DNA from: Escherichia phage vB_EcoS-683R6
Reading direction: 5' to 3' (one strand)
Sequence record: ON470595
Length of the DNA: 55,739 nt
Under the pieces are notes generated by a model. It had not been told where the DNA came from and did no database searches. It was given only the letters and a program-made list of their open reading frames with translations. Below, piece after piece: positions 31,729-55,739 of this stretch. Within the stretch, counting starts at the first letter, position 1. The number at the start of each line of letters is the position of its first letter. A program made the translations under genes and the position numbers.

Positions 31729-31731
31729 TAT

Positions 31732-32164: not shown

Positions 32165-32191
32165 AACCGCCATATTTGGCGGTTTTTTTTA
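32165..32191 (+). terminator. strong intrinsic terminator upstream of the lysis genes (tR'-like)
   Basis: AACCGCCA-TATT-TGGCGGTT hairpin followed by T8. Confidence 0.7.
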
Positions 32192-33754: not shown

Positions 33755-33891
33755 AATCTTAACTACAATATGATTCATTTTGATGATTGTTTCATAAGGA
33801 ACAGTGAAGTAAGATCTAAGAGGAGTTAAATTTTATACAGTATAATCATAATATTGCAGCAAGGTGGTTATAATTGAAAGAATATTTAGAT

Positions 33892-35349: not shown

Positions 35350-35486
35350 TATATGGCTGATTTATAATTGTGAGTTTAATATTATGTTGACTCACTCATT
35401 GATCCAATACCTAACTTTACCAGCAACCCCTCCGTCCCCAGTAGCACTGGCTGCTGGGGTGCGTTTTATTCATAAAGCAAGGCTGT

Positions 35487-37203: not shown

Positions 37204-37390
37204 CGTTCTGGATGTTGATCTGAACCGACTGAAAGAAAATCGGGAAGCAATGACAGATTTTTATGCGGCCATCCGTAAGGGCAGAGCGAAAGGTGAAGCC
37301 GAGTTACGAGCGGCATTGTTTAAGCTTGCCAGAAAAGGGGATGCCTTTGCTCTGCGCGAACTACTCAGGGTGGATAAAAATCAGGACTAA
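37139..37390 (+). CDS. small phage protein upstream of terminase (83 aa)
   Basis: ORF with helical/HTH-like character; function not assigned. Confidence 0.4.
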   Translation: MIPYSKVESLAACRMTAQQIADVLDVDLNRLKENREAMTDFYAAIRKGRAKGEAELRAALFKLARKGDAFALRELLRVDKNQD

Positions 37391-37393
37391 CTG

Positions 37394-38488
37394 ATGAGCA
37401 GACCGGACTGGGGGGCGTTGCAGCAGGAGTATATTGCTGAATACACCCGCTCCGGTATATCTCCGGTGGCATGGTGTGAAGCAAGGGGACTGAATTACGC
37501 AACAGCCCGTCGTTACATCAAAAAAACTCCGAAAAATGCGCAGACAGAAATGTGCAAAACTGCGCAAAAAAGTGCGCAGAAAAAATCTGCGCAGACTGCA
37601 CAAAAGCGGAACGAAAAATCTCAGGAAAAAAAGCCAGTATTCGATGCGGGCCTGAATGAGGGCGACGCGGAGGAATTTTCGTTCTGTCCCGATGAATTCG
37701 GCATTTCTGACCAGCAGGCTAAGTTTGCGATGCTTGTTGCTCAGGGTAAAAAGCCGACAGAGGCGTACCGACTAGCCGGTTATGAGGGGCAAGGTGCGAC
37801 AGCTAACAGCAACGCCAGTCGTATGCTTAGAAATGCCAGGGTTTTTCGCGCTATCAGCTACTTCCGCAATCAGTACCAGAAACGCTATACCGCAGACCTG
37901 GATTTACTAGTGAGTCAGTTGATGGCTATTGTCCTGGCCGACCCCAATCAGCTTGCACAATTTCGCCGTGTTAACTGCCGTTATTGCTGGGGCGAGAATC
38001 ATCTCTACCAGTGGCGCGATATAGCAGAATTCGACAAGGCAGCGGCGCAGGCTTCCAGAGATGGCAAACCCGAACCGGAATATGGAGGCCTCGGCTTTGT
38101 TGATAACGCCATACCCAATCCGGACTGCCCGAAGTGCTGCGGTGAGGGAACGGGACAGCTTTATATGGCTGATACCACTCTGCTTGATGGGGATGCGCGG
38201 CAATTATATGCAGGGGCAAAATTCGGAAAATTCGGCGTTGAGATCCTGCTGGAGGATAAGGCTGCCGCCCGGCGTGAATTGTTGCGTTTGCTTTCTGCTG
38301 GCGGGGATTTATGTGCAGATAAGCGGCTACAGGAACTGGAAATTGAACGGCGCAGAATGGAAAACCAGAAGCTGCGCAAAGAGATCGAAACGGTGGAAGA
38401 TAATGAACATCCCCAGCCTGTGGCGATCAATATTAATGTGGTTGATGCCAGAGTAAGGAGTGATGAAGATGATCTCTCCGACGCTTAA
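37394..38488 (+). CDS. putative terminase small subunit (DNA-recognition component)
   Basis: 364 aa; N-terminal HTH-like region; precedes and overlaps the large terminase gene. Confidence 0.55.
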   Translation: MSRPDWGALQQEYIAEYTRSGISPVAWCEARGLNYATARRYIKKTPKNAQTEMCKTAQKSAQKKSAQTAQKRNEKSQEKKPVFDAGLNEGDAEEFSFCPDEFGISDQQAKFAMLVAQGKKPTEAYRLAGYEGQGATANSNASRMLRNARVFRAISYFRNQYQKRYTADLDLLVSQLMAIVLADPNQLAQFRRVNCRYCWGENHLYQWRDIAEFDKAAAQASRDGKPEPEYGGLGFVDNAIPNPDCPKCCGEGTGQLYMADTTLLDGDARQLYAGAKFGKFGVEILLEDKAAARRELLRLLSAGGDLCADKRLQELEIERRRMENQKLRKEIETVEDNEHPQPVAININVVDARVRSDEDDLSDA

Positions 38489-39770
38489 TGTGCCTCAGGC
38501 GCGATTTCTTTCAATGCCCCATAAATTTAAAGCCTATATTGCTGGTTTTGGCTCGGGCAAAACATGGGTTGGGTGTGGCGGCATATGCAAGGGGATTTGG
38601 GAGCATCCAGGTATAAATCAGGGATATTTTGCGCCAACGTATCCCCAAATTCGCGATATTTTTTACCCTACAGTGGAAGAAGTTGCTGCTGACTGGGGAT
38701 TGAACGTAAAAATTAATGAGGGAAATAAAGAGGTTCACTTTTATTACGGACGCCAGTATCGGGGAACCACTATCTGCAGATCGATGGAGAAGCCACAAAC
38801 GATCGTCGGTTTCAAAATTGGTAATGCGTTGGTGGATGAACTGGACATTTTGCCGAAGGAAAAAGCCAGAACGGCGTGGCGCAAGATAATTGCGCGTATG
38901 CGTTATAAGATTGATGGACTTCGCAACGGTATTGACGTTACAACCACGCCGGAAGGATTCAAATTTGTCTACGAGCAGTTTGTTAAAGCCGTGCGTGAAA
39001 AAACAGAGCTGGCCTCACTGTATGGTCTGGTGCAGGCATCTACTTTCGATAATGAAAAGAACCTGCCAGCAGATTACATTCCTTCGCTTCTTGAATCATA
39101 CCCTCCAGAGCTGATTAAAGCCTATCTGCGAGGACAGTTTACTAACCTGACAAGTGGTACTGTTTACCATCAGTTTGACCGGAAACTGAATAATTGCGAA
39201 GAAGTGGAGCAGCCAGGGGAGCCGATTTATATTGGGATGGATTTTAACGTTGGAAAGATGGCGGGAATCGTCCATGTGCTGCGTTTGGGGCTTCCATGTG
39301 CGGTAACTGAAATCATCAATGCCTACGATACGCCGGATATGATCCGCATCATTAAAGAACGCTTCTGGCTGTATGATGGGAATGATTACCGGAAAGTGAG
39401 GGAAATTTATATTTATCCAGATGCTTCCGGGGATTCCAGAAAATCAAGTAACGCAAGTACGACGGATATAGCCCAGCTTAAGCAGGCTGGTTTTAACGTT
39501 GTGGTGAACAGCTCGAACCCGCCAGTAAAAGATCGCGTTAACTCAATGAATGCAATGTTCTGCAATGCCAATGGTGAGCGTCGCTATAAAGTTAATGTGA
39601 AGCGTTGCCCGTTATATGCCGAATCTCTGGAGCAACAGGTCTGGGATGAGAAGGGGGAGCCTGATAAAAAATCTGGCAATGATCACCCGAATGATGCCGG
39701 AGGTTATTTCATCGTTAAGCAATTCCCTATTGTCAAACCGACCGGAAGAGTCACATCACTTCGGATTTAA
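38460..39770 (+). CDS. terminase large subunit (ATPase/nuclease)
   Basis: 436 aa; Walker A-like AGFGSGKT near the N-terminus; position before the portal gene. Confidence 0.8.
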   Translation: MMKMISPTLNVPQARFLSMPHKFKAYIAGFGSGKTWVGCGGICKGIWEHPGINQGYFAPTYPQIRDIFYPTVEEVAADWGLNVKINEGNKEVHFYYGRQYRGTTICRSMEKPQTIVGFKIGNALVDELDILPKEKARTAWRKIIARMRYKIDGLRNGIDVTTTPEGFKFVYEQFVKAVREKTELASLYGLVQASTFDNEKNLPADYIPSLLESYPPELIKAYLRGQFTNLTSGTVYHQFDRKLNNCEEVEQPGEPIYIGMDFNVGKMAGIVHVLRLGLPCAVTEIINAYDTPDMIRIIKERFWLYDGNDYRKVREIYIYPDASGDSRKSSNASTTDIAQLKQAGFNVVVNSSNPPVKDRVNSMNAMFCNANGERRYKVNVKRCPLYAESLEQQVWDEKGEPDKKSGNDHPNDAGGYFIVKQFPIVKPTGRVTSLRI

Positions 39771-39772
39771 TT

Positions 39773-41179
39773 ATGGCTGATATATCAACACCCAACCTCG
39801 ACTATAACGATATGCTGGAGGCGTGGGATATTAACGACGCACTGATGGGCGGTACGCTTGAAATGCGCAGGCAGGGGGAAAATTATCTCCCAAAATGGCC
39901 TAACGAAGATGAAGACGCTTATAAAAAACGCCTGTCTGTGGCTACGCTACTTCCTGTGTATGAAGAAAGCATCAAGCAAAATATTGGGCGCATATTTGCA
40001 GAGCCGACAGTATTGAGTGAGGAAACGCCGGCAAAAATCAGGGAATATGCAGAAAATATCGACATGGAGGGAAGCCGACTGGATGTGTGGGCGCAGCAAT
40101 TTTTCAGCCTCGCATTTCAGTATGGTGTGGCACATGCGCTGGTGGACTATCCACGAACGGATATGAAAGAGATTCGGACAAAAGCCGATGAAAACGCGGC
40201 CGGTAGTCGTCCGTACGTTACGATGCTGAATCCACGCCAGGTTATTGGATGGAAATCGAAAGTTGAAAAAGGGAAAGTTGTTCTCACTGATTTGCGTATA
40301 AAAGAGGTCATCATTATTGATGGTGATGATTTCGGGCAGAAGAAGGTGGAGCAGATCCGCCATATTATGCCCCGTCGAGTTGAAATTTATCGACGTAGCG
40401 AAGGCACTAATGGCGAATCTGTCTGGACGCTTCATGAGTCATGGAATACCAGCCGTGATGATATTCCTCTGGTAACACTGTACACGAAGAAAACAGGATT
40501 TATGCGTGGTACACCGCCATTGCTTAATCTTGGCTTGCTGAATATCAAGCACTGGCAAAGCCAGAGCGAGCAGGACAATATTCTTCATGTTGCCCGCGTT
40601 CCATTGCTGGTGGCCTACGGGCTGGACAGGAATGAAGAACTGACGGTTGGTGCATCCACCGCTACGATTTTTGAGGACAGAACAAAAAATGGCCTCGAAT
40701 ATGTTGAACATAGTGGCGCAGCGATAGAATCTGGCGAAACATCACTTGAGAAGCTGGAAAATCAGATGCGTCATGCCGGCGCTAAACTTCTGCGTGCTGA
40801 AAATACATCCACCAAATCTGTTGATCAGACTAATGAAGAGCGAATGCAGGAAAACTCGCCGCTTTATACAATGGCGAACTCCCTCGAAGATGCCCTCGAT
40901 AATATTCTCCAGATAATGGCGGAATGGATCGGAGAGAGTTGCGGTGGCAATGTGGATGTGCGCACTGAACTGGATGTATCTGCCCAGGTGTTTGACTCAT
41001 CCTCCGCGCTGGCTGTTCAGTCATTGCGTCAGGGCGGTGATATACGTCAGATTGATGCGATTCGGGTGTTGCAGGCGTTGAAATTTATCGATCAGGATTC
41101 CCGTCCAGAGGAAGTGATCGATGAATTAAAAAATCAGAGTGTAATGCTGATGGAAATCAATGATGCAAACCGTGAATGA
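39773..41179 (+). CDS. portal protein
   Basis: 468 aa ORF between terminase and head-morphogenesis genes. Confidence 0.7.
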   Translation: MADISTPNLDYNDMLEAWDINDALMGGTLEMRRQGENYLPKWPNEDEDAYKKRLSVATLLPVYEESIKQNIGRIFAEPTVLSEETPAKIREYAENIDMEGSRLDVWAQQFFSLAFQYGVAHALVDYPRTDMKEIRTKADENAAGSRPYVTMLNPRQVIGWKSKVEKGKVVLTDLRIKEVIIIDGDDFGQKKVEQIRHIMPRRVEIYRRSEGTNGESVWTLHESWNTSRDDIPLVTLYTKKTGFMRGTPPLLNLGLLNIKHWQSQSEQDNILHVARVPLLVAYGLDRNEELTVGASTATIFEDRTKNGLEYVEHSGAAIESGETSLEKLENQMRHAGAKLLRAENTSTKSVDQTNEERMQENSPLYTMANSLEDALDNILQIMAEWIGESCGGNVDVRTELDVSAQVFDSSSALAVQSLRQGGDIRQIDAIRVLQALKFIDQDSRPEEVIDELKNQSVMLMEINDANRE

Positions 41180-42275
41180 ACGGCTGCGTGATGAATCAAT
41201 TGCTCATGCAGTCTGGATATCCCGCTATAGCACTGGCGTGGCTGCCAGAATGGTGAAAATACTGAATGACAGCGATGCGGAACTTACTGCTCGCCTGCTG
41301 ATAGCACTGGACAGCCTCGATCCAGGTAGTTTTACCGTTAAGCGCCTGGAGTCACTTCTGGCGAGCGTCAGAGAGGTTAACCGCACTGCTATTAACAGCA
41401 TGTTTACCAGTCTCTCCGGAGAGCTGAACGAGCTGGCAATTTATGAGGCTGGTTATCAGTTAAGTCTGTTTGATTCTATGCTACCTGATTTTGTTGCTGA
41501 TGTTCACCCTCTGGTTGGTATCTCTCCTGATGCACTTTATGCCGCTGCAATGGCGCGACCATTTCAGGGACGACTGCTCAGTGAGTGGGCCTCAGATCTT
41601 GAGGCGGATCGGCTCAGACGCATAACAAATACAGTGCGTCAGGGTTTTTTGCTGGGGGATACCAATGAGCAGATCGCAAGAAAAATTCGGGGACATGTCA
41701 GTAAGGGATTTCAGGATGGTGCATTGCAGATGAGCCGGGCTAATGCGGCCAGCATTGCAAAAACAGCGGTTGGACATCTTGCTGCTACTGCCCGTGAGAG
41801 TTTTGCCAGCGCGAATAATGATTTGATTAAGGGTAAGCAATGGTTATCAACGCTTGATAATCGTACTACGCCACAATGTCGAATCAGGGATCGCCTCAAA
41901 TATACGCTGAATAATAAACCTGTAGGTCACAGCGTGCCTTATTTGCAGGGGCCGGGAAAAATTCATTTCTGCTGCCGCTCAACGGAAACGTTCATTCTGA
42001 AATCAGCGAAGGAACTGGGTATTGATGTTCGCGATATTTCCCCGGCTGAGCGGGCCAGCATGGATGGCGTGGTGGCCGGAGATACAACCTACAGGGAATG
42101 GTTTTTGCGTCAGCCTTACACCAGACAAAAACAGATTGTGGGGGAAACCCGAGCAAAGCTGATTCGGGATGGTGGTATGTCGCCAGATGAATTTTACACC
42201 GATAAAGGCGAATGGCTGACGCTGAAGCAGCTCCGTGAGCGTGATGCACAGGTATTCAGAAAAGCAGGGATTTAA
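41160..42275 (+). CDS. head morphogenesis protein (Mu F / SPP1 gp7-like)
   Basis: 371 aa; position after the portal gene; overlapping start. Confidence 0.65.
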   Translation: MMQTVNERLRDESIAHAVWISRYSTGVAARMVKILNDSDAELTARLLIALDSLDPGSFTVKRLESLLASVREVNRTAINSMFTSLSGELNELAIYEAGYQLSLFDSMLPDFVADVHPLVGISPDALYAAAMARPFQGRLLSEWASDLEADRLRRITNTVRQGFLLGDTNEQIARKIRGHVSKGFQDGALQMSRANAASIAKTAVGHLAATARESFASANNDLIKGKQWLSTLDNRTTPQCRIRDRLKYTLNNKPVGHSVPYLQGPGKIHFCCRSTETFILKSAKELGIDVRDISPAERASMDGVVAGDTTYREWFLRQPYTRQKQIVGETRAKLIRDGGMSPDEFYTDKGEWLTLKQLRERDAQVFRKAGI

Positions 42276-42294
42276 ATAAATCATTTATTACAAC

Positions 42295-42320
42295 AGGCTA
42301 CCTTCGGGTGGCCTTTTTTA
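42295..42320 (+). terminator. UUCG-tetraloop hairpin plus T6 between head-morphogenesis and scaffold genes
   Basis: AGGCTACC-TTCG-GGTGGCCT followed by TTTTTT. Confidence 0.5.
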
Positions 42321-42379
42321 TTGCTGCGATCCGGATGGTGAGCAGCGTAACTGTCGGAAGACTTAAACCAGGTACTAAT

Positions 42380-43144
42380 ATGAAACTGAAAACGGTCGAG
42401 ATTAACGGAAAACAATACGCAGAAATTGATACTGCTGGCCTGCCAGTTTATGTGCACGACGATGGTAAAGAAATTGGCTTCGATGCACCGCTGGCGACAA
42501 AAAAAATTACAGAGCTTAATAGCGAGGCAAAAAATCATCGCCTGGCTAAAGAAGCTGCAGAGGAAAAACTGGCTAAGTTTGCCGCTATCGAAGACCCGAA
42601 GAAGGCGATCGAGGCACTGGAAATGCTGTCAAAAATCGACCAGAAAAAGCTGCTCGATGCGGGACAGGTTGACCAGGTTAAGGCAGAAATTACGAAAAAT
42701 TTTCAGCAGCAATTAGATGAAGAAAAGCAACGCTCTCAGATGCTGGAGAAGCAGCTTTACGATTCTATGATTGGCGGTAGTTTTGCGGGTTCAAAATATA
42801 TTGCCGATAAAATTGCGATCCCGGCAGATTTATTACAATCACGCTTCGGGCAGGCATTCAAAGTGGAAGAAGGGAGGATCGTTGCTTATGACGCTTCCGG
42901 CAACAAAATTTATTCCCGCGCGAAGCCTGGCGAACTGGCGCAGTTTGATGAGGCGCTGGAGTTCCTTGTCGAAAATTACCCTCAGAAAGACTACATCCTG
43001 AAAGCCAGTGGCAACAATGGCGGCGGCTCCCGTCCGACACAGCATGATATTGGTCAGAAAACGATGAAACGCTCTGCTTTTGATGCACTGGATGTTGCAG
43101 GTAAGCAAAACGCATTGAAAGACGGTATCACAATCGTTGATTAA
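42380..43144 (+). CDS. putative scaffold protein
   Basis: About 254 aa from ATG 42380; charged, coiled-coil-like; directly upstream of the major capsid gene. Confidence 0.55.
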   Translation: MKLKTVEINGKQYAEIDTAGLPVYVHDDGKEIGFDAPLATKKITELNSEAKNHRLAKEAAEEKLAKFAAIEDPKKAIEALEMLSKIDQKKLLDAGQVDQVKAEITKNFQQQLDEEKQRSQMLEKQLYDSMIGGSFAGSKYIADKIAIPADLLQSRFGQAFKVEEGRIVAYDASGNKIYSRAKPGELAQFDEALEFLVENYPQKDYILKASGNNGGGSRPTQHDIGQKTMKRSAFDALDVAGKQNALKDGITIVD

Positions 43145-43242
43145 CACATTTGTCAGCTTCCGGATGGGAGCTGGTGTCAGGGCTGGATAGCTCATTACTC
43201 CATCTATTCACAATTACGCAAATTTTTAAGGAATATTTAATT

Positions 43243-44382
43243 ATGGCTGGAAATACCCTGACCGGGTTGATCCCGACTATTTATACCGCCCTGGATGTTG
43301 TATCCCGTGAGCAGGTAGGTTTTATCCCTGCGGTAGCAAAAAACGCAAAAGCTGACGCCGCAGCAAAAGATCAGACGGTAACCGCGCCAGTTGCGCCTGA
43401 GGCGAAAACCGAAGATATCGTACCGGGGCCGTCAGCTCCGAATACCGGTGATCAAAATATTGGCACTGTTGATGTAAAAATTACTAAATCCAAAATGGCA
43501 CCGGTTAAATGGAATGGTGAAGAACAACTGGCTCTTGGTCCTTCAGGGACTTACAACACCATTCTGGCTGATCAGTTCAAGCAGGCTTTTCGCGCCCTTG
43601 CAAACGAGGTTGAGGCTGATCTTGGTGCGTTGTATTTCGGTGCTTCCCGCGCCGTGGGAACCGCAGGGACAACGCCGTTTGGTGTTAAAGATGATCTTTC
43701 TGATGCTGCTCTGGCTCGTCAGGTTCTGGAGGATAACGGCGCACCGACAACCGATCTGCAGATGGTGCTTGGCTCCACTGCCATTGCTAATTTGCGCGGA
43801 AAACAGTCTGTATTGTTTAAAGTGAATGAATCCGGCACTGAACAGCTACTGCGTGAGGGCGTGTTGGGGCGTCTGGAGGGATTCAATATTCACAGTTCGG
43901 CAGGTGTGAAACGAGCGCCAAAGGTTGCTGCAACTGGTTATCTCGTGAATGGAGAGAAAAAAGAAGGCGATGTTCTTATTTCCATTGATACTGGTTCGGG
44001 GAGTATTTCTGCAGGTCAGATTGTTACGTTCGCTGGTGATCCGAATCAGTATGTTGTGGCAGCAGCGACCAGCAATCTGATTACTCTTGCAGCGCCCGGA
44101 CTGCGTCAGGATCTGGCCGATGATACTGCCATCACAGTTGTTGGGGCCTTTACTGCAAATATGGCGTTTGATCGCAACGCGTTTCTGCTGGCATCCCGTA
44201 CTCCGGCAATGCCGGAAGGTGGCGATAATGCTGATGATGTAATGAATGTTACGGACCCGATTTCAGGGATTACGTTCCAGATTGCACTGTATCGTCAGTA
44301 TCGCCAGGTGCGCTATGAAGTTGGACTGGCATGGGGTGTTTCATCAGTGAAGCCGGCACATGGTTGTCTGATTCTTGGTTAA
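43243..44382 (+). CDS. major capsid protein
   Basis: About 379 aa from ATG 43243 (AAGGA RBS); followed by a strong hairpin terminator, typical of major capsid genes. Confidence 0.7.
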   Translation: MAGNTLTGLIPTIYTALDVVSREQVGFIPAVAKNAKADAAAKDQTVTAPVAPEAKTEDIVPGPSAPNTGDQNIGTVDVKITKSKMAPVKWNGEEQLALGPSGTYNTILADQFKQAFRALANEVEADLGALYFGASRAVGTAGTTPFGVKDDLSDAALARQVLEDNGAPTTDLQMVLGSTAIANLRGKQSVLFKVNESGTEQLLREGVLGRLEGFNIHSSAGVKRAPKVAATGYLVNGEKKEGDVLISIDTGSGSISAGQIVTFAGDPNQYVVAAATSNLITLAAPGLRQDLADDTAITVVGAFTANMAFDRNAFLLASRTPAMPEGGDNADDVMNVTDPISGITFQIALYRQYRQVRYEVGLAWGVSSVKPAHGCLILG

Positions 44383-44392
44383 ACATTCAAAC

Positions 44393-44413
44393 GGGGCTTC
44401 GGCCCCATTTTTA
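44393..44413 (+). terminator. UUCG-tetraloop hairpin plus T-tract after the capsid gene
   Basis: GGGGC-TTCG-GCCCC followed by ATTTTTA. Confidence 0.55.
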
Positions 44414-44423
44414 ATGGGGGGCA

Positions 44424-44600
44424 TATGGCCGGATTAACTAAAGAGCAAAGAGCACAGCGTGAAGCCGCACAAAAAACGCAAATTGAGTTAGTGGTTATGG
44501 TGACCGATTATCAGATGTTTCCCGGCGCACCAACTATCGCTAATGTTCATCCTGATGAAGTTGACAACTGGAAGGCTATGGGCTGGAAAACTCAGGAGTA
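44424..44600 (+). CDS. small phage protein (58 aa)
   Basis: Hand translation: MAGLTKEQRAQREAAQKTQIELVVMVTDYQMFPGAPTIANVHPDEVDNWKAMGWKTQE; fills the gap between the capsid gene and the next ORF. Confidence 0.4.
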
Positions 44601-44604
44601 ACAC

Positions 44605-45000
44605 ATGATCACTTACGTGACCTGTGATGACGTTGATAATGCGTTTGGGAACGCCTGGACGAGTGAGAACGCTAAAAATAAAGCTGTTTTAATGGCTAAT
44701 GCCTGGCTTAATGGCTTCAACCTGAAAATTAACCCATCCCGTATTCCGGAAGAGGTAAAACTTGCGGGAGCATATGCAGCCAGAATTGCCTCATTTGGTA
44801 AGTTGTTTCAGCAGAAAAATGATTCTGGCGTTGTTATCAGTAAAGCCGTGTCGGCTGACGGGGTCAGTGTATCGAAATCATTTTCTGAGTTGCCAGCAAA
44901 CAGCACTGCATTGCTTGAACCCGATTTACAGCTTGCGATAGCACTGCTGAAACCGTACGGACTTAGTCGCTCACAAGTCAGGGTTGTGAGGGGGGGATAA
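44605..45000 (+). CDS. head-tail connector / head completion protein
   Basis: 131-aa ORF in the head-tail joining block; abutting neighbours. Confidence 0.5.
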   Translation: MITYVTCDDVDNAFGNAWTSENAKNKAVLMANAWLNGFNLKINPSRIPEEVKLAGAYAARIASFGKLFQQKNDSGVVISKAVSADGVSVSKSFSELPANSTALLEPDLQLAIALLKPYGLSRSQVRVVRGG

Positions 45001-45383
45001 TGGGGCTTCGTGAAGAGATTCAGTCAGAGGTTGCCGCTGCTTTTGATGAGGATTTAGCGGACGCCGTGAGTGATTTTTCTGGTTATTACGTTACGCACCG
45101 GCACTGGGATCCTGTGACGGAAACTGGCGGCGAATCCACCGCAATCTATACCGGGCGAGGCGTGTTGACACGTTATAAGCTGGGCAGAATTGATGGGATT
45201 AATATTTTGCATGGTGACCTTAAATTAACCGCTCTGGTATGCGAGGTTACGGATAAACCAGCTGTCGACCATATTATTGAGATTTATGATCCTGTATCAA
45301 GGCAGTTACAACGATACGAGGTAATTACAGCAAGTTTAGATCCTTCCGCATCAGTTTACTCTATCCAGTTAAGGAGAGCGTAA
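45000..45383 (+). CDS. head-tail adaptor protein
   Basis: 127-aa ORF, ATGA-type overlap with upstream gene. Confidence 0.5.
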   Translation: MGLREEIQSEVAAAFDEDLADAVSDFSGYYVTHRHWDPVTETGGESTAIYTGRGVLTRYKLGRIDGINILHGDLKLTALVCEVTDKPAVDHIIEIYDPVSRQLQRYEVITASLDPSASVYSIQLRRA

Positions 45384-45764
45384 ATGGCAAAGGCATGGGA
45401 TATAGAACCGTCAATATTTGCCGGGATGATTGAGGAAGATGTAGGGCTGAAGATTCGCTACATCGCTATGCAGATTCTTACTGCTATTGATATTGCTGCT
45501 CCGGTTGATACCGGACGTTTCAGAAATAACAACCTGGTGTCGTTACAGCATCCCGATTTTGGTATATCTGATAACGTGGATCCGAACGGTACGATTGCTG
45601 TTCAGCGTGGGATCGGGGTTATTTCGAAAGCTGCAAATTACGGGGTTATTTATATCCAGAATAACCTTCCTTATGCAGAGGCTCTTGAAAACGGTCATTC
45701 ACAACAAGCGCCAACTGGCGTGTATGCCAACGCTTTTTATGGTGTTTTACAGGCTTACAAATGA
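45384..45764 (+). CDS. tail component (head-tail joining block)
   Basis: 126-aa ORF, tightly packed. Confidence 0.5.
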   Translation: MAKAWDIEPSIFAGMIEEDVGLKIRYIAMQILTAIDIAAPVDTGRFRNNNLVSLQHPDFGISDNVDPNGTIAVQRGIGVISKAANYGVIYIQNNLPYAEALENGHSQQAPTGVYANAFYGVLQAYK

Positions 45765-46153
45765 AGTTTACTGAAATCAGAAATACGGTTATTTCCAGAA
45801 TGACGGCACAGACGATTATTGATGGAAAAGACGTATTGTATCCGAACGGGCCAACGTTCGATCCTTCCGGTAAGTTAATCTGGGCGCGGTTAAGTAATAT
45901 TCCCGGGCAGGCTGGGGTTAATGAAATTGGCGCGGGGCCGGTTGTTTATCGCACGGGGATAATCATTATTCAGTTATTTGTCCCCGCAGGTTCTGGTTCA
46001 AAACTCATTACTGAGACAGCCGATAAATTGCGGGAACTGTTTGAGTTTCAGGATGACGATCGTCTCAGTTACCAGGCTGTTTCCTCAATAGCCGTCGGCG
46101 AAAAGAATGGCTGGTTCCAGCTTAATCTTCAAATTCCATATCGCGCGCTCTAG
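45761..46153 (+). CDS. tail completion / tail terminator protein
   Basis: 130-aa ORF directly before the major tail gene. Confidence 0.5.
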   Translation: MKFTEIRNTVISRMTAQTIIDGKDVLYPNGPTFDPSGKLIWARLSNIPGQAGVNEIGAGPVVYRTGIIIIQLFVPAGSGSKLITETADKLRELFEFQDDDRLSYQAVSSIAVGEKNGWFQLNLQIPYRAL

Positions 46154-46179
46154 CGCAATTAATGACATAGGAGGCTTCT

Positions 46180-47142
46180 GTGAGTTCAGGTGCAAAGGTT
46201 ATCTCGGCATTTATCCGGGAGACAGTTGCAGGCACTACGCCAGCAAGTGGTGACTGGAGTTTATTAAAACGCACAAGCTGGGGAGTAAAACCCACCCAGA
46301 ATAAAGGCGAAAATAATGAGATTGGTGGCTCCCGGATGGCTCAGGGGGCGACGCCTGGCACTGTGGATGTCGGCGGTGATGTTGGTACCAAATTTCGCTG
46401 GGGTCAACATGATGATTTTCTTGCATCCTGTTTCGGCGCGGAATGGTCAGGCGATTCTCTGACAATGGGGAATGAGCGAATAACATTTTCTCTGGCGACC
46501 TATGCGTCCGATGTCGGAATTGCCTCTGTCGTCAGAGGAGCGCAGGTTGGCTCATGGAAAATGCAGATCCCTAACGACGGCGATATTACAGCGACCGTAA
46601 CCTTTGCCGGGCTGGGCTGGGAAACAAAGGCCGATGATACGAATTTTATCAAAGGCAAACCTGTGGATAGTGCAGGAAAGTTACGCTATTCGTTTAAGGA
46701 GGTTTCAGCAGTAAGCCTGAATGGTGTTGCCGGAGGTAACGGTTTTTGTATCGACAGTTTTGATATTCAGTTCGATAACAAACTCCAGACACAGCGTTGT
46801 ATCGGGACTGGCTCGCCTTATGCAGGAGCAAATATTCCGACTACTTTTACACCGTCCGGTACGGTGACGCTTTCATGGTCTAAAGCCGCGTGGGAAATCT
46901 GGAGTAAAACACTGACTGGAGAAACAGTTCCGTTCAGCTTCACGCTTTCGAATGGAGAGGGGGCATACACTTTCAGTTTCCCGAAGGTTCAGGTGTCAGG
47001 TGAATGGCCTGATGGGGGTAATACTGACATTATCCAGGTTCAATTGAGCATTACCGCAGCAGATGAAGCACCTACGATAACCAGAAAAAAATGCTCCCCG
47101 ACTGCCGTGATCGCAAAAGCCAGTGCTGATGCGATTAGTTGA
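46180..47142 (+). CDS. major tail tube protein
   Basis: 320-aa ORF (GTG start) preceding the G/GT chaperone pair and tape measure gene. Confidence 0.65.
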   Translation: MSSGAKVISAFIRETVAGTTPASGDWSLLKRTSWGVKPTQNKGENNEIGGSRMAQGATPGTVDVGGDVGTKFRWGQHDDFLASCFGAEWSGDSLTMGNERITFSLATYASDVGIASVVRGAQVGSWKMQIPNDGDITATVTFAGLGWETKADDTNFIKGKPVDSAGKLRYSFKEVSAVSLNGVAGGNGFCIDSFDIQFDNKLQTQRCIGTGSPYAGANIPTTFTPSGTVTLSWSKAAWEIWSKTLTGETVPFSFTLSNGEGAYTFSFPKVQVSGEWPDGGNTDIIQVQLSITAADEAPTITRKKCSPTAVIAKASADAIS

Positions 47143-47190
47143 TTTTCCGTTATTCCCCCTGTGGTACTGCACTACAGGGGGACGCATTGA

Positions 47191-47652
47191 ATGAGGTTAT
47201 GGATGTTTATTCTTAATCAGAAAATTATCATCGGTGGAGAACGCTGGTTTACGCCAATGAAGGACTTAAAACCTGTAGACGGGTTAAAACTGTTGGTGGC
47301 AAGCAGCGATAACGATCAGTATCGCTCCCGTAATGCATTAATCCGTCGTCACATTGAGAAAATGGATGCCAGTTTGCACGTCGGAACGAAGGAGTTTGAT
47401 ATTTCAAAGGTTTCCGAGGTAGATTCTGTTGATGATTTACTCATTGATAATGCTGCTCGTTATCTGCTGAAAGACTGGAAAGGGGTTGGTGAACTGGTTA
47501 ATGGTGCTGAGGTTGCACTGGAATATACGCCAGAACGAGGGATCGCGCTGCTTAAGCAGAATCCAGAGTTGTACTGGCAGATCCTTGCAGAAGCAGCCAG
47601 CATCGCCCAGGGTAAAGAGCAGCAGAAGCAGGATACGATAAAAAAGCCATAG
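47191..47652 (+). CDS. tail assembly chaperone, gpG-like
   Basis: 153-aa ORF ending just after an A_AAA_AAG slippery heptamer; position between major tail and tape measure genes. Confidence 0.7.
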   Translation: MRLWMFILNQKIIIGGERWFTPMKDLKPVDGLKLLVASSDNDQYRSRNALIRRHIEKMDASLHVGTKEFDISKVSEVDSVDDLLIDNAARYLLKDWKGVGELVNGAEVALEYTPERGIALLKQNPELYWQILAEAASIAQGKEQQKQDTIKKP

Positions 47653-47960
47653 CCGCCCAGCGGTGGTTATCGGAGTTCGGGGGAGAAAGGGGGGAAAAGG
47701 CAAGATGGAAGCGAGAAAAACTCAGGTTGCCACCGATACCGGAACCAGAAATAGACCCGGTGCTTAAGGAATTGTTGTACGCCTATTCGGTAATATCCCG
47801 TGCCCGACGTTATGCTGGAATGACCGGGGTGCCTTTGCCTTTATCTCTGACAGAGATAAATGAATATTTAGCCACTCATCCGGTATTGATTGAGCGCGAT
47901 GAGTTTGAAGCAGTGATCTTTGCACTGGATGACCAGTATTTTCAGGATCAGTGTGTGTAG
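47640..47960 (+). CDS. -1 frame extension producing a gpGT-like fusion chaperone (programmed frameshift at 47640-47646)
   Basis: The -1 frame is open from the heptamer through the 47727-47960 ORF with no stop (KKAIAAQRWLSEFGGERGEKARWKREKLRLPPIPEPE...). Confidence 0.6.
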   Translation, partial: KKAIAAQRWLSEFGGERGEKARWKREKLRLPPIPEPEIDPVLKELLYAYSVISRARRYAGMTGVPLPLSLTEINEYLATHPVLIERDEFEAVIFALDDQYFQDQCV

Positions 47961-48081
47961 TTGTTAATTACGTACACTCTGTTACAGAGATGTGATGGTG
48001 TCTTTAATTAAATCGATGATGCTCCTGGAGAAAAGCATTGCGTGGCCTCGTAATCGCTATATCTACTATTATGTCGCCTGA

Positions 48082-48107
48082 AACCCACTTCGGTGGGCTT
48101 TTTGTTG
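48082..48107 (+). terminator. UUCG-tetraloop hairpin plus T-tract upstream of the tape measure gene
   Basis: CCCAC-TTCG-GTGGG followed by CTTTTTGTTG. Confidence 0.4.
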
Positions 48108-48123
48108 TCTGGAGTTTTAATAA

Positions 48124-51100
48124 ATGGCAGAGCAAACCTCGCGTCTCGCAATAATTATTGATAGCACTGGAGCAAAAAATAATGCTGACAATCTGACCTC
48201 CTCATTAGTCAAAATGACGCAGGCCGGGGAAACTGCTGCAAATAGCGCAGGGAAAGTGACTAAGGCAACAGAAGATGAGAAGAACGCGCTCGCAAAATTA
48301 AAAGTAGCTATTGATCCAGTTGGTGCCGCAATTGATACTGTCGGTCGACGCTATTCTGAATTAAAGAAATTTTTCGATAAAGGGCTTATTGATAAAGAAG
48401 AATATGAATTTCTTGTCCGTAAACTTAATGAAACCACAGAGGAATTGAGCGGGGTTGCGCAAGCGCAGAGAGAAGCCGAGAAGGCCGGAAAACTTGCTGC
48501 CGCCCAGCAGGAAGCGCAGGCTCAGGCCTTTCAAAGAATGCTGGACAAGATCGACCCTCTGGCTGCGGCGCTAAGAAATCTTGAACAACAGCAGGATGAA
48601 CTTAATGCTGCGTTTGCATCCGGGAAAATAAATGGTTCTCAGTTTGAGAATTATAGCCGAAAAATACAGGAAACACGGCGAGAGCTTACCGGAGAGGCTC
48701 AGGCAGAGCGAGAAGCAGCAAAAGCGCATGATGAACAGGTTGCTGCTTTGCAACGTCTGATTGCTCAACTTGACCCTGTCGGAACTGCTTTTAATCGTCT
48801 GGTAGAACAACAGAAACAGCTCAATGAAGCAAAAGCTAAGGGGATGCTCTCTCCTGAAATGTATGAGGAACTTTCTGGAAAACTTCGTGCTATGCGGAGT
48901 GAGCTTGAGGTTACTCAATCTCAATTAAGCAAAACCGGAATGTCGGCAAAACAAACGGCTTTTGCTATGCGCATGTTGCCTGCACAAATGACGGATATTG
49001 TTGTTGGGTTGTCCACTGGTCAGTCGCCTTTTATGGTGTTAATGCAGCAGGGCGGCCAGCTAAAAGATATGTTCGGTGGGATTGGCCCGGCGATCAAAGG
49101 TGTTGGTTCTTATGTGCTGGGATTAATTAATCCTTTTACCCTGGCCGCAGCAGCCGTTGGCGTCTTAGGGCTGGCTTACTATAAAGGCTCTCAGGAGCAG
49201 GACGAATTTAATAAATCTCTTATTCTTACCGGAAATCAGTTGGGGACAACCAGCGGGCAATTGGCCGATATAGCTCAACGTGCCGGGAATGCGGCTGATT
49301 CGACAACTGGCGCTGCGGCGGCAGTATTAAACCAGCTTGTGCGTTCGGGAAAGGTAGCGAGCAGTTCGCTGGAGCAAGTGACGACAGCGATAGTAAAAAC
49401 GAGCGAAGTAACAGGAATATCAACCGAACAACTGGTTAATGACTTCAATGAAATTGCAAAGGATCCTGTCAGTGCCATATCAAAACTTAATGATCAGTAC
49501 CATTTTCTGACAATTGCGACTTATAACCAGATTAAGGCGCTACAGGATGAAGGGAACCAGCAGGAGGCCGCCCGCATTGCGACAGAAGCATACTCATCCT
49601 CAATGATCCAGCGCACCAACCAGATTAAAGAAAATCTTGGTTATCTTGAGACTGCATGGAAAGCTGTCGCAGACTCCGCAAAATGGGCATGGGATTCCAT
49701 GCTGGACATTGGCCGTGAGGCCTCCCTTGATCAAAAAATCTCAGATGTTCTCCGTCAAATTGATGAAATAGAAAAAAATACCCGACCCGGAGTTTTCGGG
49801 TTAGGTGGCATTGGAGATGGCGGAGCTCAAAATAAAAGGCTGGCACGATTAAAGCAGCAATTGGGCGTACTTCAAGCAGAAAAAATTGCTCAGGACGTCC
49901 TAAATTCATCAATAAACGATTACAACAAGCGACAACAGGAAGGAATTGAACTCAGACAGAGAGCAGATGCCTTTTCAAAACAATATCAGACCCGGGAGCA
50001 GCAGAGAGCTAGTGAACTTGCAAAACTGGAAAAGCTAAAGAGTCAGTATTCAAAGGAAGAATATAATAATTTTATCGCTCAAATAAATGAGCGTTATAAA
50101 GATCCAAAGCAACCAAAGGCGAAAGGTTATTCGGATGATGCTGCCCAACGAATGATTGATCATCTGAATCAACAGAATGCGTTACTAAGTTCACAAACTG
50201 AATTAACCGTTAAATTAAGTTCCTCTGAACAGGAACTGGTTAAGTGGCGTCAGCAGATTGCCGACCTGGAGTCACGACCGTCATCGAAATTAACCCAGGA
50301 TCAGAAATCGCTTCTCTTACACCGGGAAGAAATAACCGCGTTGATGGAGAAAAATGTTGCGATTGAAAAAAATAACAGGCTAATCAAGGAATCCGCCGAA
50401 ATAGCTGCATGGCGTGATTTATTGCAGGCTTCGATTGATAATCGTCAACAGGGGTATGATATTCAGATTGCTGGTTATGGGGTTGGCGATAAAAATCAGC
50501 AACGCCAGCAGGAATTACTGCGGATTGAACGTGAATATAACAATCAGCGTCTGCAACTTGAACGTGACTATGCAGATAAATCCCGTGGGATGTCAAATCA
50601 TGTTTTTCAGGAGAAAATGTAGGCTCTGAATGATGCTCTGGAACGAGAAAAAGAAATTGTCAGACAGAAAAACGAGCAGCTCGATATTCAGGCAGGAGAC
50701 TGGGTTAGTGGTGCCTCCCAGGGATTCAATAACTGGCTGGATGACACTAAGGATATCAGTGAGCAGATAAAATCAACCACGACTCAGATGTTTGATGGAA
50801 TGACCGATGCGCTGGGTGATTTTGTCACGACAGGCAAGGCAAATTTTCGTTCTTTCGCTACTTCCGTGATTTCGGATCTTAGTCGAATAGCATTAAAGGC
50901 TTCAATTACTGGGATTTTCGACAGCATTAGTAACAGTTCTTCGGGGGGGATTTTAGGAACTATCGGGAGTGCTATTAGTAAATTTATTCCGAATGCAAAG
51001 GGCGGTGTTTATGAGTCTCCGTCATTGAACACGTATTCGAACGGTATTTATGATTCCCCGCAATTTTTTGCTTTTGCAAAAGGGGCTGGTGTTTTTGGTG

Positions 51101-51357
51101 AGGCTGGTCCGGAAGCCATTATGCCATTAACACGAACATCCGATGGTTCTCTTGGTGTCAGAGCTATTAATAGTAAAAGTGGTAATGGAGGCGGAGATAT
51201 TACCTATGCCCCTGTATACCAAATCACTATTCAAAATGACGGCCAGAATGGAGAGATTGGCCCTCAGGCAATAAAAGCACTTATGGGGATGGTTGATCAG
51301 CGGGTGCAGGGCAATCTGTTAAATATGCGACGTGATGGGGGAATGTTAAGTGGCTAA
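48124..51357 (+). CDS. H: tail tape measure protein (lambda gpH-like) interrupted by a single in-frame TAG at 50620-50622
   Basis: 832-aa ORF and downstream 189-aa ORF are in the same frame with no other stop; coiled-coil-rich N-terminus; C-terminal region ..[27 protein letters not shown].. Confidence 0.8.
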
Positions 51358-51688
51358 TACGGAAGAATTTCACTGGTTACCAGAGGATGGAATGAAAACA
51401 GAAAATAAACCATCGATAAAAACTGTAAGATTTGGCGATGGTTATGAGCAACGAAGTCCAAATGGACTTAATCATTCTCTGCGCGTTTTCACCTGTGATT
51501 TCAAAGTTGAGGCGAATGAACGTGATTCATTTGAAAAATTTTTAGCCCGGCATGAAGGCTATAAATCTTTTTTTTGGCGCCCGCCTGGTATTAACAGAAA
51601 AATCAGAGTGGTGTGTCGAACGTGGTCAGCGACAGAACATATCACCTATACCGATTTTTCGTGTCAGTTTGACGAAGTGGTGATCTGA
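51350..51688 (+). CDS. M: minor tail protein M (lambda gpM-like)
   Basis: 112 aa [35 protein letters not shown].. matches remembered lambda M. Confidence 0.85.
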   Translation: MANTEEFHWLPEDGMKTENKPSIKTVRFGDGYEQRSPNGLNHSLRVFTCDFKVEANERDSFEKFLARHEGYKSFFWRPPGINRKIRVVCRTWSATEHITYTDFSCQFDEVVI

Positions 51689-52386
51689 TGCAGGACATAC
51701 AACAGGAAACGCTGAATGAATGCATTCGTGCGGAGCAGTCGGCCAGCGTGGTGCTCTGGGAAATCGACCTGACCGAGGTAGGCGGGGATCGCTACTTTTT
51801 CTGCAATGAGCAGAACGAGAAAGGAGAGTCTGTCACCTGGCAGAGTCGGCAGTATCAGGCCTATCCCATTCAGGGGAGTGGATTTGAGATGAACGGCAAA
51901 GGTGCCAGTGCAAGGCCAACGCTGAAAGTCTCTAATCTGCACGGCATGGTCACCGGGATGGCGGAAGACCTGCAGAGTCTGGTCGGCGGAACGGTGGTCA
52001 GGCGTAAGGTTTACGCCCGTTTTCTGGATGCGGTGAACTTCGTCAACGGAAACAGTGACGCCGATCCGGAGCAGGAGGTGATCAGCCGCTGGCGTATTGA
52101 GCAGTGCAGCGAACTGAGCGCGGTCAGTGCCTCCTTTGTACTGTCCACGCCGACGGAAACGGACGGCGCTGTTTTTCCGGGGCGCATCATGCTTGCTAAT
52201 ACCTGCACCTGGACCTATCGCGGTGATGAGTGCGGTTATCACGGTCCGGCGGTCGCGGATGAATATGACCAGCCGACATCCGAAATCACGAAGGATAAAT
52301 GCAGCAAATGCCTGAGTGGCTGTAAGTTCCGCAATAATGTCGGCAACTTTGGCGGCTTCCTTTCCATTAACAAACTTTCGCAGTAA
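51688..52386 (+). CDS. L: minor tail protein L (lambda gpL-like)
   Basis: 232 aa; C-terminal Cys cluster (CSKCLSGCKFRNN); position after M. Confidence 0.85.
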   Translation: MQDIQQETLNECIRAEQSASVVLWEIDLTEVGGDRYFFCNEQNEKGESVTWQSRQYQAYPIQGSGFEMNGKGASARPTLKVSNLHGMVTGMAEDLQSLVGGTVVRRKVYARFLDAVNFVNGNSDADPEQEVISRWRIEQCSELSAVSASFVLSTPTETDGAVFPGRIMLANTCTWTYRGDECGYHGPAVADEYDQPTSEITKDKCSKCLSGCKFRNNVGNFGGFLSINKLSQ

Positions 52387-52391
52387 ATCCC

Positions 52392-53086
52392 ATGACAGAG
52401 ACAGAATCAGCGATTCTGGCGCACGCCCGGCGATGTGCGCCAGCGGAGTCGTGCGGCTTCGTGGTGAGAACGTCGGAAGGGGAAAGATATTTTCCCTGCG
52501 TGAATATCTCCGGTGAGCCGGAGGAGTATTTCCGGATGTCGCCGGAGGACTGGCTGCGGGCAGAGATGCAGGGTGAGATTGTGGCGCTGGTCCACAGCCA
52601 CCCCGGTGGTATGCCCTGGCTGAGTGAGACCGACCGGCGGCTGCAGGTGCAGAGTGATTTGCCGTGGTGGCTGGTTTGCCGGGGAGCGATTCACAAGTTC
52701 CGCTGTGTGCCACATCTTTCCGGGCGGCGCTTTGAGCACGGGGTGACGGACTGTTACACGCTGTTCCGGGATGCTTACCATCTGGCGGGNNNNNNNNNNN
52801 NNNNNNNNNNNNNNNNNNNNNNNNNNNNNNNNNNNNNNNNNNNNNNGCGGCGCAGCCGGGCGATGTGCTGCTGTGCTGTTTTGGTTCATCGGTGCCGAAT
52901 CATGCCGCCATTTACTGTGGTGACAGCGAGCTGCTGCACCATATTCCTGAACAACTGAGTAAACGAGAGAGGTACACCGACAAATGGCAGCGACGCACAC
53001 ACTCCCTCTGGCGTCACCGGGCATGGCACGCATCTGCCTTTACGGGGATTTACAACGATTTGGCCGCCGCATCGACCTTCGAGTGA
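52392..53086 (+). CDS. K: tail assembly protein K (lambda gpK-like, JAMM/NlpC-P60 type); contains a 57-nt N run at 52790-52846
   Basis: N-terminal part MTETESAILAHARRCAPAESCGFVVRT.. with HSHPGG motif; C-terminal part in the 52865-53086 ORF; frame shifts across the Ns. Confidence 0.8.
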
Positions 53087-53631
53087 AAACGGGGTCCGAA
53101 GCCATCCGGGCGCTGGCCATGCAGATCCCGGCGTTTCGTCAGAAACTGAGCGACGGCTGGTATCAGGTACGCATTGCCGGGCGTGATGCAGGTGAAACTG
53201 AATTATCAGCCCGTCTTAATGAACCGCTGGCAAATGGTGCCGTGATCCACATTGTGCCGCGTCTGGCGGGAGCCAAAAGTGGCGGTCTTTTTCAGGCTGT
53301 GCTGGGGGCGGCGCTGATTGCGGTGGCATGGTGGAACCCTGCAGGTTGGTTGGGGGCTGCCGCAATTACAGGAATGTATGGTGCGGGGGCCAGTATGGTG
53401 CTCGGTGGTGTGGCGCAGATGCTGGCACCGAAAGCCAGAACTCCCCGTACACAGACAACGGATAACGGCAAACAGAACACCTATTTCTCCTCACTGGATA
53501 ACATGGTTGCCCAGGGCAATGTTCTGCCGGTTCTGTACGGTGAAATGCGCGTGGGGTCACGGGTGATTTCGCAGGAGATCAGCACGGCAGATGAAGGAGA
53601 TGGTGGTCAGGTTGTGGTGATTGGTCGTTGA
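52984..53631 (+). CDS. I: tail assembly protein I (lambda gpI-like)
   Basis: MAATHTLPLASPGMARICLYGDLQRFGRRIDLRVKTG.. matches remembered lambda I; overlaps the K 3' end. Confidence 0.85.
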   Translation: MAATHTLPLASPGMARICLYGDLQRFGRRIDLRVKTGSEAIRALAMQIPAFRQKLSDGWYQVRIAGRDAGETELSARLNEPLANGAVIHIVPRLAGAKSGGLFQAVLGAALIAVAWWNPAGWLGAAAITGMYGAGASMVLGGVAQMLAPKARTPRTQTTDNGKQNTYFSSLDNMVAQGNVLPVLYGEMRVGSRVISQEISTADEGDGGQVVVIGR

Positions 53632-53691
53632 TGCAGAATGTTTTGTGTGAAACCGCCTCAGGGCGGTTTTGTCGTTTCTGGAGCGTGAGGA

Positions 53692-55739
53692 ATGGGTAAA
53701 GGCAGNNNNNNNNNNTCCCGCGCGAAGCGAAGGACAACCTGAAATCATCCCAGATGCTGAGCGTGATAGACGCCATCAGTGAAGGGCCGATTGAAGGTCC
53801 GGTGGATGGATTAAAAAGCGTGCTGCTGAACAGTACGCCGGTGCTGGACAGTGAGGGGAATACCAATATCTCCGGCGTCACGGTGGTGTTCCGGGCAGGT
53901 GAGCAGGAGCAGTCACCGCCGGAGGGATTTGAATCCTCCGGTTCCGAGACGGTGCTGGGTACGGAAGTGAAATATGAAACGCCGATCACCCGGACCATCA
54001 CGTCGGCAAACATCGACCGTCTGCGCTTTACCTTCGGTGTACAGGCACTGGTGGAAACCACCTCAAAGGGAGACAGGAATCCGTCGGAAGTCCGCCTGCT
54101 GGTTCAGATACAGCGTAACGGTGGCTGGGTGACGGAAAAAGACATCACCATTAAAGGCAAAACCACCTCACAGTATCTGGCATCGGTGGTGGTGGGTAAC
54201 CTGCCGCCGCGCCCGTTTAATATCCGGATGCGCAGGATGACGCCGGACAGCACCACAGACCAGCTGCAGAACAAAACGCTCTGGTCGTCATACACCGAGA
54301 TCATCGATGTGAAACAGTGCTACCCGAACACGGCACTGGTCGGCGTACAGGTGGACTCGGAGCAGTTCGGCAGCCAGCAGGTGAGCCGTAATTATCATCT
54401 TCGCGGGCGCATTCTGCAGGTGCCGTCGAACTATAACCCGCAGACGCGACAATACAGCGGTATCTGGGACGGAACGTTAAAACCAGCATACAGCAACAAC
54501 ATGGCCTGGTGTCTGTGGGATATGCTGACCCACCCGCGCTACGGCATGGGGAAACGTCTTGGTGCGGCGGATGTGGACAAATGGGCGCTGTATGTCATCG
54601 GCCAGTACTGCGACCAGTCAGTGCCGGACGGCTTTGGCGGCACGGAGCCGCGCATCACCTGTAATGCGTACCTGACCACACAGCGCAAGGCGTGGGATGT
54701 GCTCAGTGATTTCTGCTCGGCGATGCGCTGTATGCCGGTATGGAACGGGCAGACGCTGACGTTCGTGCAGGACCGACCGTCGGATAAGGTGTGGACCTAT
54801 AACCGCAGTAATGTGGTGATGCCGGATGATGGCGCGCCGTTCCGCTACAGCTTCAGCGCCCTGAAGGACCGCCATAATGCCGTTGAGGTGAACTGGATTG
54901 ACCCGAACAACGGCTGGGAGACGGCGACAGAGCTTGTTGAAGATACGCAGGCCATTGCCCGTTACGGTCGTAATGTCACGAAGATGGATGCCTTTGGCTG
55001 TACCAGCCGGGGGCAGGCACACCGCGCCGGGCTGTGGCTGATTAAAACGGAACTGCTGGAAACGCAGACCGTGGATTTCAGCGTGGGCGCAGAAGGGCTT
55101 CGCCATGTGCCGGGCGATGTTATTGAAATCTGCGATGATGACTATGCCGGTATCAGCACCGGTGGTCGCGTGTTGGCGGTGAACAGCCAGACCCGGACGC
55201 TGACGCTCGACCGTGAAATCACGCTGCCATCCTCCGGTACCACGCTGATAAGCCTGGTTGACGGAAGTGGCAATCCGGTCAGCGTGGAGGTTCAGTCCGT
55301 CACCGACGGACTTAAGGTGAAAGTGAATCGGGTTCCTGACGGCGTTGCAGAATACAGTGTGTGGGGGCTGAAGTTGCCGACGTTGCGTCAGCGCCTGTTC
55401 CGCTGTGTGAGTATCCGTGAGAACGATGACGGCACGTATGCCATCACTGCCGTGCAGCATGTACCGGAAAAAGAAGCCATCGTGGATAACGGGGCGCACT
55501 TTGACGGCGACCAGAGCGGCACGGTGAATGGTGTCACGCCGCCAGCGGTGCAGCACCTGACCGCCGAAGTCACCGCAGACAGCGGGGAATACCAGGTGCT
55601 GGCGCGCTGGGATACGCCGAAGGTGGTGAAGGGCGTGAGCTTTATGCTTCGCCTGACCGTGGCAGCGGATGACGGCAGTGAGCGGCTGGTCAGCACGGCC
55701 CGGACGACGGAAACCACATACCGCTTCACGCAACTGGCG
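53692..55739 (+). CDS. J: host specificity / central tail fibre protein J (lambda gpJ-like), 5' part; contains a 10-nt N run at 53706-53715; runs off the window end
   Basis: Translation ..REAKDNLKSSQMLSVIDAISEGPIEGPVDGLKSVLLNSTPVLDSEGNTNISGVTVVFRAGEQEQ.. is near-identical to remembered lambda J. Confidence 0.9.

Follow-up and report, generated by a model that had tools for sequence, protein, structure and literature searches.

Among known systems, the gene analyzed here comes closest to H of phage lambda. Its product, the tape measure protein gpH, works as a single extended chain, each terminus of which defines one end of the tail, and in a sup0 host lambda H amber mutants make heads but no tails. 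In the lambda genome, H follows the tail tube gene and the G/GT pair of tail assembly chaperones, the latter expressed with a -1 frameshift, and is in turn followed by M, L, K, I, and J. In the lambda virion, gpH residues 818 to 842 form a three-helix coiled coil in the lumen of the tail tip, on the gpI trimer, and since this trimer supports the coiled coil, the C-terminus of the tape measure is placed in the tip (PMC10721106).

The other system with which the locus has to be compared is the Rac prophage of Escherichia coli K-12. We analyzed a stretch of 55,739 nucleotides (hereafter, the window) from Escherichia phage vB_EcoS-683R6 (record ON470595), which over its length is ~99.9% identical to E. 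coli 266917_2 (NZ_CP026723.1), IS and indel differences aside; all coordinates are window positions, and all features described lie on the + strand. By means of the annotation of a relative, Rfam, and blastn, we delimited an element adjoining ttcA at 14200..55739, the start being approximate and the window breaking off within gpJ, before the element ends. Its gene order is intR, xisR, ralR/RalA, recET, kilR, racR, ydaSTUV, iteAS, lysis genes, trkG, terminase, portal, capsid, and tail, with the RalA antitoxin sRNA at 15886-16064 (Rfam); the annotation of the 266917_2 prophage adds ynaK before the terminase and a capsid of the P22 type. The element is collinear with K-12 Rac in NC_000913.3 at 93 to 99.7% identity (blastn). 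Judged by the ttcA site, the intR-xisR-ralR-recET-kilR-racR-ydaSTUV-trkG order, and this collinearity, it is a Rac-type prophage of full length, related to that of K-12. The two share the ttcA-adjoining site and a collinear order that includes ynaK and ydaY, but K-12 Rac lacks the DNA corresponding to window 35741-47300 (terminase through tail tube), and its ynaA (the ynaA/tmpR remnant) is a deletion-truncated copy of the first 935 nt of the same tape measure gene (98.5% identity). In contrast, the window element keeps the whole late operon (gpK being unreadable under an N mask), its only damage being a single point mutation in the tape measure gene. Strain 266917_2 has an annotated frameshift in ydaU that the window does not share; its ydaU (23005-23862) is intact in the window.

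The surroundings of the gene reproduce the lambda arrangement. Upstream lie a tail terminator gene, an intact tail tube gene (46180..47142; Pfam and frame check), and the equivalents of gpG/gpGT, namely, ydaY and the ORF downstream of it (47191..47960; Pfam and slippery site), with a slippery heptamer A AAA AAG at 47640-47646 from which the -1 frame is open to 47960. On the 3' side we found gpM-, gpL-, gpK-, gpI-, and gpJ-like genes, in agreement with near-identical annotated loci; the gpM-like (51350-51688; Phage_min_tail) and gpL-like (51688-52386; Phage_tail_L) tail tip genes are intact by Pfam and frame check, and gpJ is cut off by the right edge of the window. With a G/GT pair containing a -1 slippery site on one side and tip genes (gpM/L/K/I/J) on the other, the gene lies where a gpH-type gene is expected. 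A candidate second defect in gpK (a 188-aa ORF at 52392-52958) was rejected as an artifact of the masked N run at 52790-52846. Apart from the tape measure gene itself, all readable late genes of the window are uninterrupted, gpK being obscured by the N run. The original prediction, made from the letters of this DNA alone, had described a single nonsense codon in an otherwise intact tail operon, and this description holds for the readable late genes and for the G/GT frameshift site.

Translation of 48124-51357 in a single frame yielded 1,078 codons with one internal stop and the terminal stop. More specifically, an ORF of 832 sense codons starts with ATG and ends in TAG (48124..50622; 5' part of the gene), and past the TAG the same frame is open from 50623 for 244 codons, up to a stop at 51355-51357 (3' part, 50623..51357); the residues around the internal stop read ...FQEKM*ALNDALE... 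(asterisk, stop). The joined product comprises 1,077 codons. The uninterrupted single frame of a functional gpH-type gene is therefore broken in the window by the TAG at 50620-50622, and the 3' part is now untranslated. A second ORF of 189 aa (50788..51357) had been listed separately, and the prediction that it shares its frame with the 832-codon ORF, that the TAG is the sole stop between them, and that the uninterrupted gene would have about 1,077 codons was confirmed by this translation and by relatives carrying one continuous gene of 1,077 codons.

Profile searches and a structural relative identified the product. Judged against Pfam gathering scores, all three domains found lay above the cut-off: TMP_2 (residues 267 to 471; 274.6 bits versus 30.2) and TMP_4 (residues 671 to 748; 86 bits versus 27) upstream of the stop, and Tape_meas_lam_C (50695-50919; 95.2 bits versus 23) downstream of it. 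The intact allele of a relative matched lambda gpH in the solved lambda tail (PDB 8iyk_H) with an E value of 1.2e-70, the alignment being collinear from query residues 268 to 1077 against gpH 55 to 850, that is, up to the last residue of the query. The C-terminal ends correspond (...RRDGGMLSG here and ...MRDGGLFSG in lambda gpH), and the last 35 residues (51250-51354) align to gpH 816 to 850, tip-anchoring coiled-coil helix included. The joined 1,077-codon product is therefore a tape measure protein of the lambda gpH type, homologous and collinear to the C-terminus though larger (1,077 aa versus 853 aa), and the sequence downstream of the TAG is tape measure C-terminal sequence, as had been predicted.

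To establish the status of the TAG, we compared alleles. In alignments with relatives, the sole difference at this codon is T versus C, giving TAG instead of CAG (Gln833), that is, a C-to-T transition at 50620. As a chance test is inapplicable to a single base, reproducibility across independent assemblies served as the criterion. Alleles were counted with 41-mers carrying the variable base at position 20, such that every 28-base megablast word must span it. The TAG 41-mer matched 33 complete E. coli genomes, and the CAG 41-mer matched 672. The same TAG allele was present on four metagenome contigs, and the exact 832-aa product occurred on 293 public contigs (NCBI, ENA, JGI, and Logan). Four GenBank "phage" records (vB_EcoS-606R9, 689R7, 611R4, and 885R8) also contain the TAG and show the gene as two CDSs, both called "tape-measure protein H"; these are PHASTER predictions from Illumina draft genomes of carbapenemase-producing isolates, not virion DNA, and were for this reason rejected as evidence of packaged virions.

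The carriers are closely related. Over 3,234 nt, 32 of them differ from the window by at most 1 substitution, plus one 1-nt deletion. Three carriers (266917_2, 28Eco12, and NMBU_W05E18) have been published as ST38, and one TAG-carrying record is named simply "strain ST38." The intact ancestral allele is extant: that of strain 144 (WP_016231723.1) is two bases off the window (V61A and Q833*). Strain 266917_2 has C at 48305, so its TAG allele differs from the strain 144 intact allele at 50620 alone, which puts this pseudogene one base from an intact gene. By the allele counts and the near-identical intact allele, the TAG is a genuine, clonally inherited C-to-T transition, neither an error nor the natural end of the gene. 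Secondary lesions of the tape measure gene were found in 3 of the 33 TAG carriers: IS elements interrupt it in ECSC054 (IS5) and in EC2 (IS1), and 28Eco12 has lost 1 nt near window position 50943. This suggests that the gene is no longer under selection, and the TAG lineage may simply be young. Related carriers, an extant intact allele, and secondary lesions together describe a lineage-restricted nonsense pseudogene, to which strain EC2 is the exception discussed below.

We consider the following course of events the best explanation overall, with a probability of about 0.88. By a C-to-T transition, the Gln833 codon CAG became the amber codon TAG in the tape measure gene of a Rac-type prophage; the mutation has been clonally inherited in a lineage of E. 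coli to which ST38 belongs, and the gene is now a pseudogene. In a non-suppressing host, translation would stop after residue 832, and the truncated product would be without its last 245 residues, i.e., without Tape_meas_lam_C and the C-terminal tip-anchoring helix; the helix formed by gpH 818 to 842 aligns to residues ~1043 to 1077 here, 210 residues past the stop. A tape measure lacking its C-terminal end could not be expected to enter the complex that initiates the tip; polymerization of the tail tube would therefore fail, and induction would give at most DNA-filled heads without tails, like those of the classical lambda H amber mutants. The prophage is thus likely unable to build tails, because the lost part holds Tape_meas_lam_C and the tip-anchoring helix, and because no suppressor, recoding structure, or restart was found in the searches described below; the mutation itself, its ancestral state and distribution, the domains that it removes, and the lack of the common suppressor alleles are read from sequences, and the tail-less phenotype is what we infer from them. 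The lesion is of the same kind as in the lambda H mutants, an amber codon. The lambda H ambers, however, are laboratory conditional-lethal mutants, whereas the amber codon described here occurs naturally, in a resident prophage, and has become fixed within a bacterial lineage.

One oddity is EC2 (NZ_CP058571.1), a non-ST38 strain with the same C-to-T change and TAG at the same codon. Its gene differs from that of the window at 43 positions over 2,647 nt but from that of Salmonella phage SPF_0923, which has the CAG allele, at only 9; the T is flanked by haplotype-specific SNPs at distances of 10 nt (upstream) and 26 nt (downstream); and neither the flanking chromosomal DNA nor the Rac immunity region of EC2 is like that of the ST38 type. 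The EC2 allele is not a one-off error, because the exact EC2-type 832-aa product was found on 23 contigs. Given 122 routes to a stop in this gene by transition and 454 by single substitution, a second hit at the same site has an a priori chance of about 0.2 to 0.8% per event. The recurrence may reflect an independent identical mutation (by coincidence or at a hot spot), a conversion patch of <36 nt, or selection.

One could accordingly ask whether the site of codon 833 is a mutational hot spot, or whether truncation at residue 832 has been positively selected. The divergent haplotype of EC2, its SNPs close to the T on both sides, its different host flanks and immunity region, the 23 contigs, and the low a priori chance of a repeat hit all speak for such a reading. 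We nevertheless regard it as unlikely: there are two occurrences only, and coincidence cannot be priced without the number of independent nonsense events across E. coli; selected inactivation would not require this codon; a short gene-conversion patch is an alternative; and inspection of the site revealed neither a known methylation context nor a quasi-palindrome, Dcm (CCWGG) deamination and quasi-palindrome correction being rejected as causes because the surrounding sequence does not suit them. Unlikelier still is the fuller version, in which CAG changed independently to TAG at codon 833 on two divergent Rac haplotypes (ST38 and EC2) through a hot spot or selection, and leaky Gln readthrough may still give rise to rare virions. 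Were it true, the lineage might benefit, for example, by silencing tail production while keeping prophage cargo such as the iteAS defense, trkG, and recET.

A second possibility is that ribosomes pass the stop, whether with the help of a suppressor tRNA encoded by the host or the prophage or through readthrough of a programmed or leaky kind, and that enough full-length protein is made for tails. UAG can infrequently be read by near-cognate tRNA-Gln, which would put the wild-type residue back, and small amounts of full-length protein may be made in this way. Either this tRNA or a supE-type suppressor would repair a CAG-to-TAG change exactly to wild type, and the rest of the gene and operon is intact in most carriers. 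Moreover, few tape measure copies are needed per virion, lambda gpH having been modeled as a trimer (PMC10721106). Our searches, however, argue against this possibility. No suppressor tRNA was found in the window, in which the sole tRNAs are Thr(UGU) and Gly(UCC). For the host side, we built suppressor 41-mers with a CUA anticodon from K-12 glnV/X, tyrT/V, serU, and leuX; the screen covered the supE, supF, supD, and supP alleles. As a positive control, it recovered C600, DH5alpha, DH1, JM109, HB101, XL1-Blue, and TG1, among others. The supE allele matched 157 records, and those listed were K-12 laboratory derivatives and one pig ETEC isolate; no TAG carrier with the supE allele was present among the records listed. 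The supF, supD, and supP alleles were confined to two laboratory strains and absent from the TAG carriers. In WP9-S17-ESBL-11, a TAG carrier whose gene is 100% identical to that of the window, the metT-glnX tRNA operon was located, and both glnV and glnX have the wild-type CUG anticodon.

Likewise, the surroundings of the stop offered no sign of recoding. Counted from the stop, the first 100 nt have a predicted fold no more stable than that of shuffled sequences (z = -0.17), which leaves no stimulatory RNA structure in that stretch; near the stop, no Rfam element matched, and neither a terminator nor a promoter was found. Programmed readthrough needs a stop that is conserved among relatives, whereas TAG stands against CAG here in 33 versus 672 complete genomes. 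Thus, within the tRNA types and RNA searches run, neither a cognate suppressor tRNA nor a stimulatory RNA element was detected, and IS insertions or a frameshift have accumulated in the gene of some carriers. Readthrough sufficient for tails is, in our assessment, very unlikely, and suppression, which the original prediction had kept as an escape route, is disfavored by the wild-type glnV/glnX of a carrier and by the absence of TAG carriers among the suppressor-positive records listed.

The gene might also be naturally split, such that the tape measure would consist of an 832-aa protein plus a C-terminal protein translated on its own. An in-frame ATG at 50788 does open the 189-codon ORF, and two CDSs named "tape-measure protein H" appear in some annotations. 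According to the ORF list and Pfam, however, this ORF is the remainder of the tape measure frame counted from its first in-frame ATG; the ATG falls within the Tape_meas_lam_C domain, no Shine-Dalgarno-like sequence was seen before it, and no usable restart site was found after the TAG. No separate gene corresponds to the 189-codon ORF. Close relatives beyond the two TAG lineages all encode one continuous gene of 1,077 codons, and two pieces would lose the ruler function, which depends on a single extended chain. A split tape measure is accordingly highly improbable; had related phages naturally ended the gene at this point, the original prediction would have fallen, but relatives have CAG and a continuous gene. 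Finally, the sequencing or assembly error that had been proposed as an alternative (true base C at 50620, gene intact) differs from the common allele by only a single base, but has next to no probability, as the identical TAG recurs in 33 complete genomes from many groups and methods, in the four PHASTER-derived records, and on the four metagenome contigs, 293 contigs encode exactly the truncated protein, and the site is neither a homopolymer nor a Dcm CCWGG site.

An inherited amber codon that truncates the tape measure thus remains our preferred reading, and it describes ordinary prophage decay. RefSeq/PGAP already labels the gene in TAG-carrying genomes as a pseudogene ("phage tail tape measure protein, internal stop"), and nothing material sets the case apart from the generic prophage pseudogenization that NCBI PGAP marks as "internal stop"; the decay is publicly annotated, and its mechanism is without novelty. 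Its importance is small beyond bookkeeping. PHASTER-derived "phage" records containing the stop were deposited with two tape measure CDSs, and the T at 50620 can serve as a simple lineage marker. The amber allele represents one early step on a path of decay, of which the K-12 Rac remnant is a later stage. ST38 is a globally spread clone, and the Rac-type prophage of the E. coli lineage that includes it probably makes no infectious particles, though prophage-finding software calls it "intact."

We observed the amber codon of the tape measure gene on a second haplotype as well. In E. coli EC2 (NZ_CP058571.1), a CAG-to-TAG change is present at positions 3520-3522 of locus L008, the counterpart of window 50620-50622. 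The EC2 tape measure haplotype differs from that of the window at 43 positions, yet it carries the identical change, with haplotype SNPs on either side of it (-10 and +26 nt); the chromosomal flanks of EC2 are also unlike those of the window. The 832-aa product of EC2 type, ending ahead of the premature TAG, is carried by 23 public contigs. The EC2 TAG codon reflects either a recurrent mutation or the transfer of a very short conversion patch.

Separately, we detected a supE-type tRNA-Gln gene with a CUA anticodon at 3933394-3933434 of NZ_CP122768.1 (E. coli ETEC1738, a pig isolate with a genome of 5.58 Mb). Among the matches listed, ETEC1738 is the only supE-type carrier that is not obviously a K-12 laboratory derivative, and its CUA allele may represent a natural amber suppressor, or else a transferred or laboratory allele.

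The Rac prophage of K-12 and the window are collinear, except that K-12 has no counterpart of 35741-47300, the stretch from terminase to tail tube. Window 47301-49058 is matched in K-12 by ydaY and ynaA, and ynaA therefore corresponds to the initial 935 nt of the tape measure gene. The gpG-like chaperone open reading frame (ORF), ydaY, carries at its end a canonical signal for programmed -1 frameshifting, the heptamer A AAA AAG (window 47640-47646, within 47191-47960). The -1 frame stays open after this slippery site up to 47960, and a -1 shift there would generate a gpGT-like fusion; in existing annotations, the part downstream of ydaY is given as a separate "hypothetical protein."

Four runs of masked N are present in the window (18166-18188, 24734-24758, 52790-52846, and 53706-53715). 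The third falls within the gene for gpK (C40 peptidase), and it is because this run interrupts the gene that gpK seems truncated (188-aa ORF, 52392-52958). The run comprises 57 N, versus 107 nt at the same place in related loci.

The early region of the prophage carries as cargo an intact iteA/iteS pair (26064-29457), encoding an anti-phage ATPase and an S8 peptidase, with gene names as assigned by PGAP in a genome that is 99.9% identical; different genes occupy this position in K-12 Rac and in EC2. The prophage also bears two tRNA genes, tRNA-Thr(UGU) and tRNA-Gly(UCC), at 31653-31806, with the DUF1133 (Q-like) gene on one side and the lysis cassette on the other. Rfam matches identified three sRNAs, namely, McaS (4497-4592, minus strand) and FnrS (11459-11576, plus strand) in the chromosomal flank, and RalA (15886-16064, plus strand) in the prophage, opposite ralR.

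Other carriers of the prophage exhibit further lesions: an IS5 insertion in the tape measure gene of ECSC054 (around window 50010), a 1-nt deletion in 28Eco12 (around window 50943), and, in 266917_2, a frameshift in ydaU together with an IS3 element inserted between abgA and abgR. These lesions are additional, strain-specific decay of one shared prophage.
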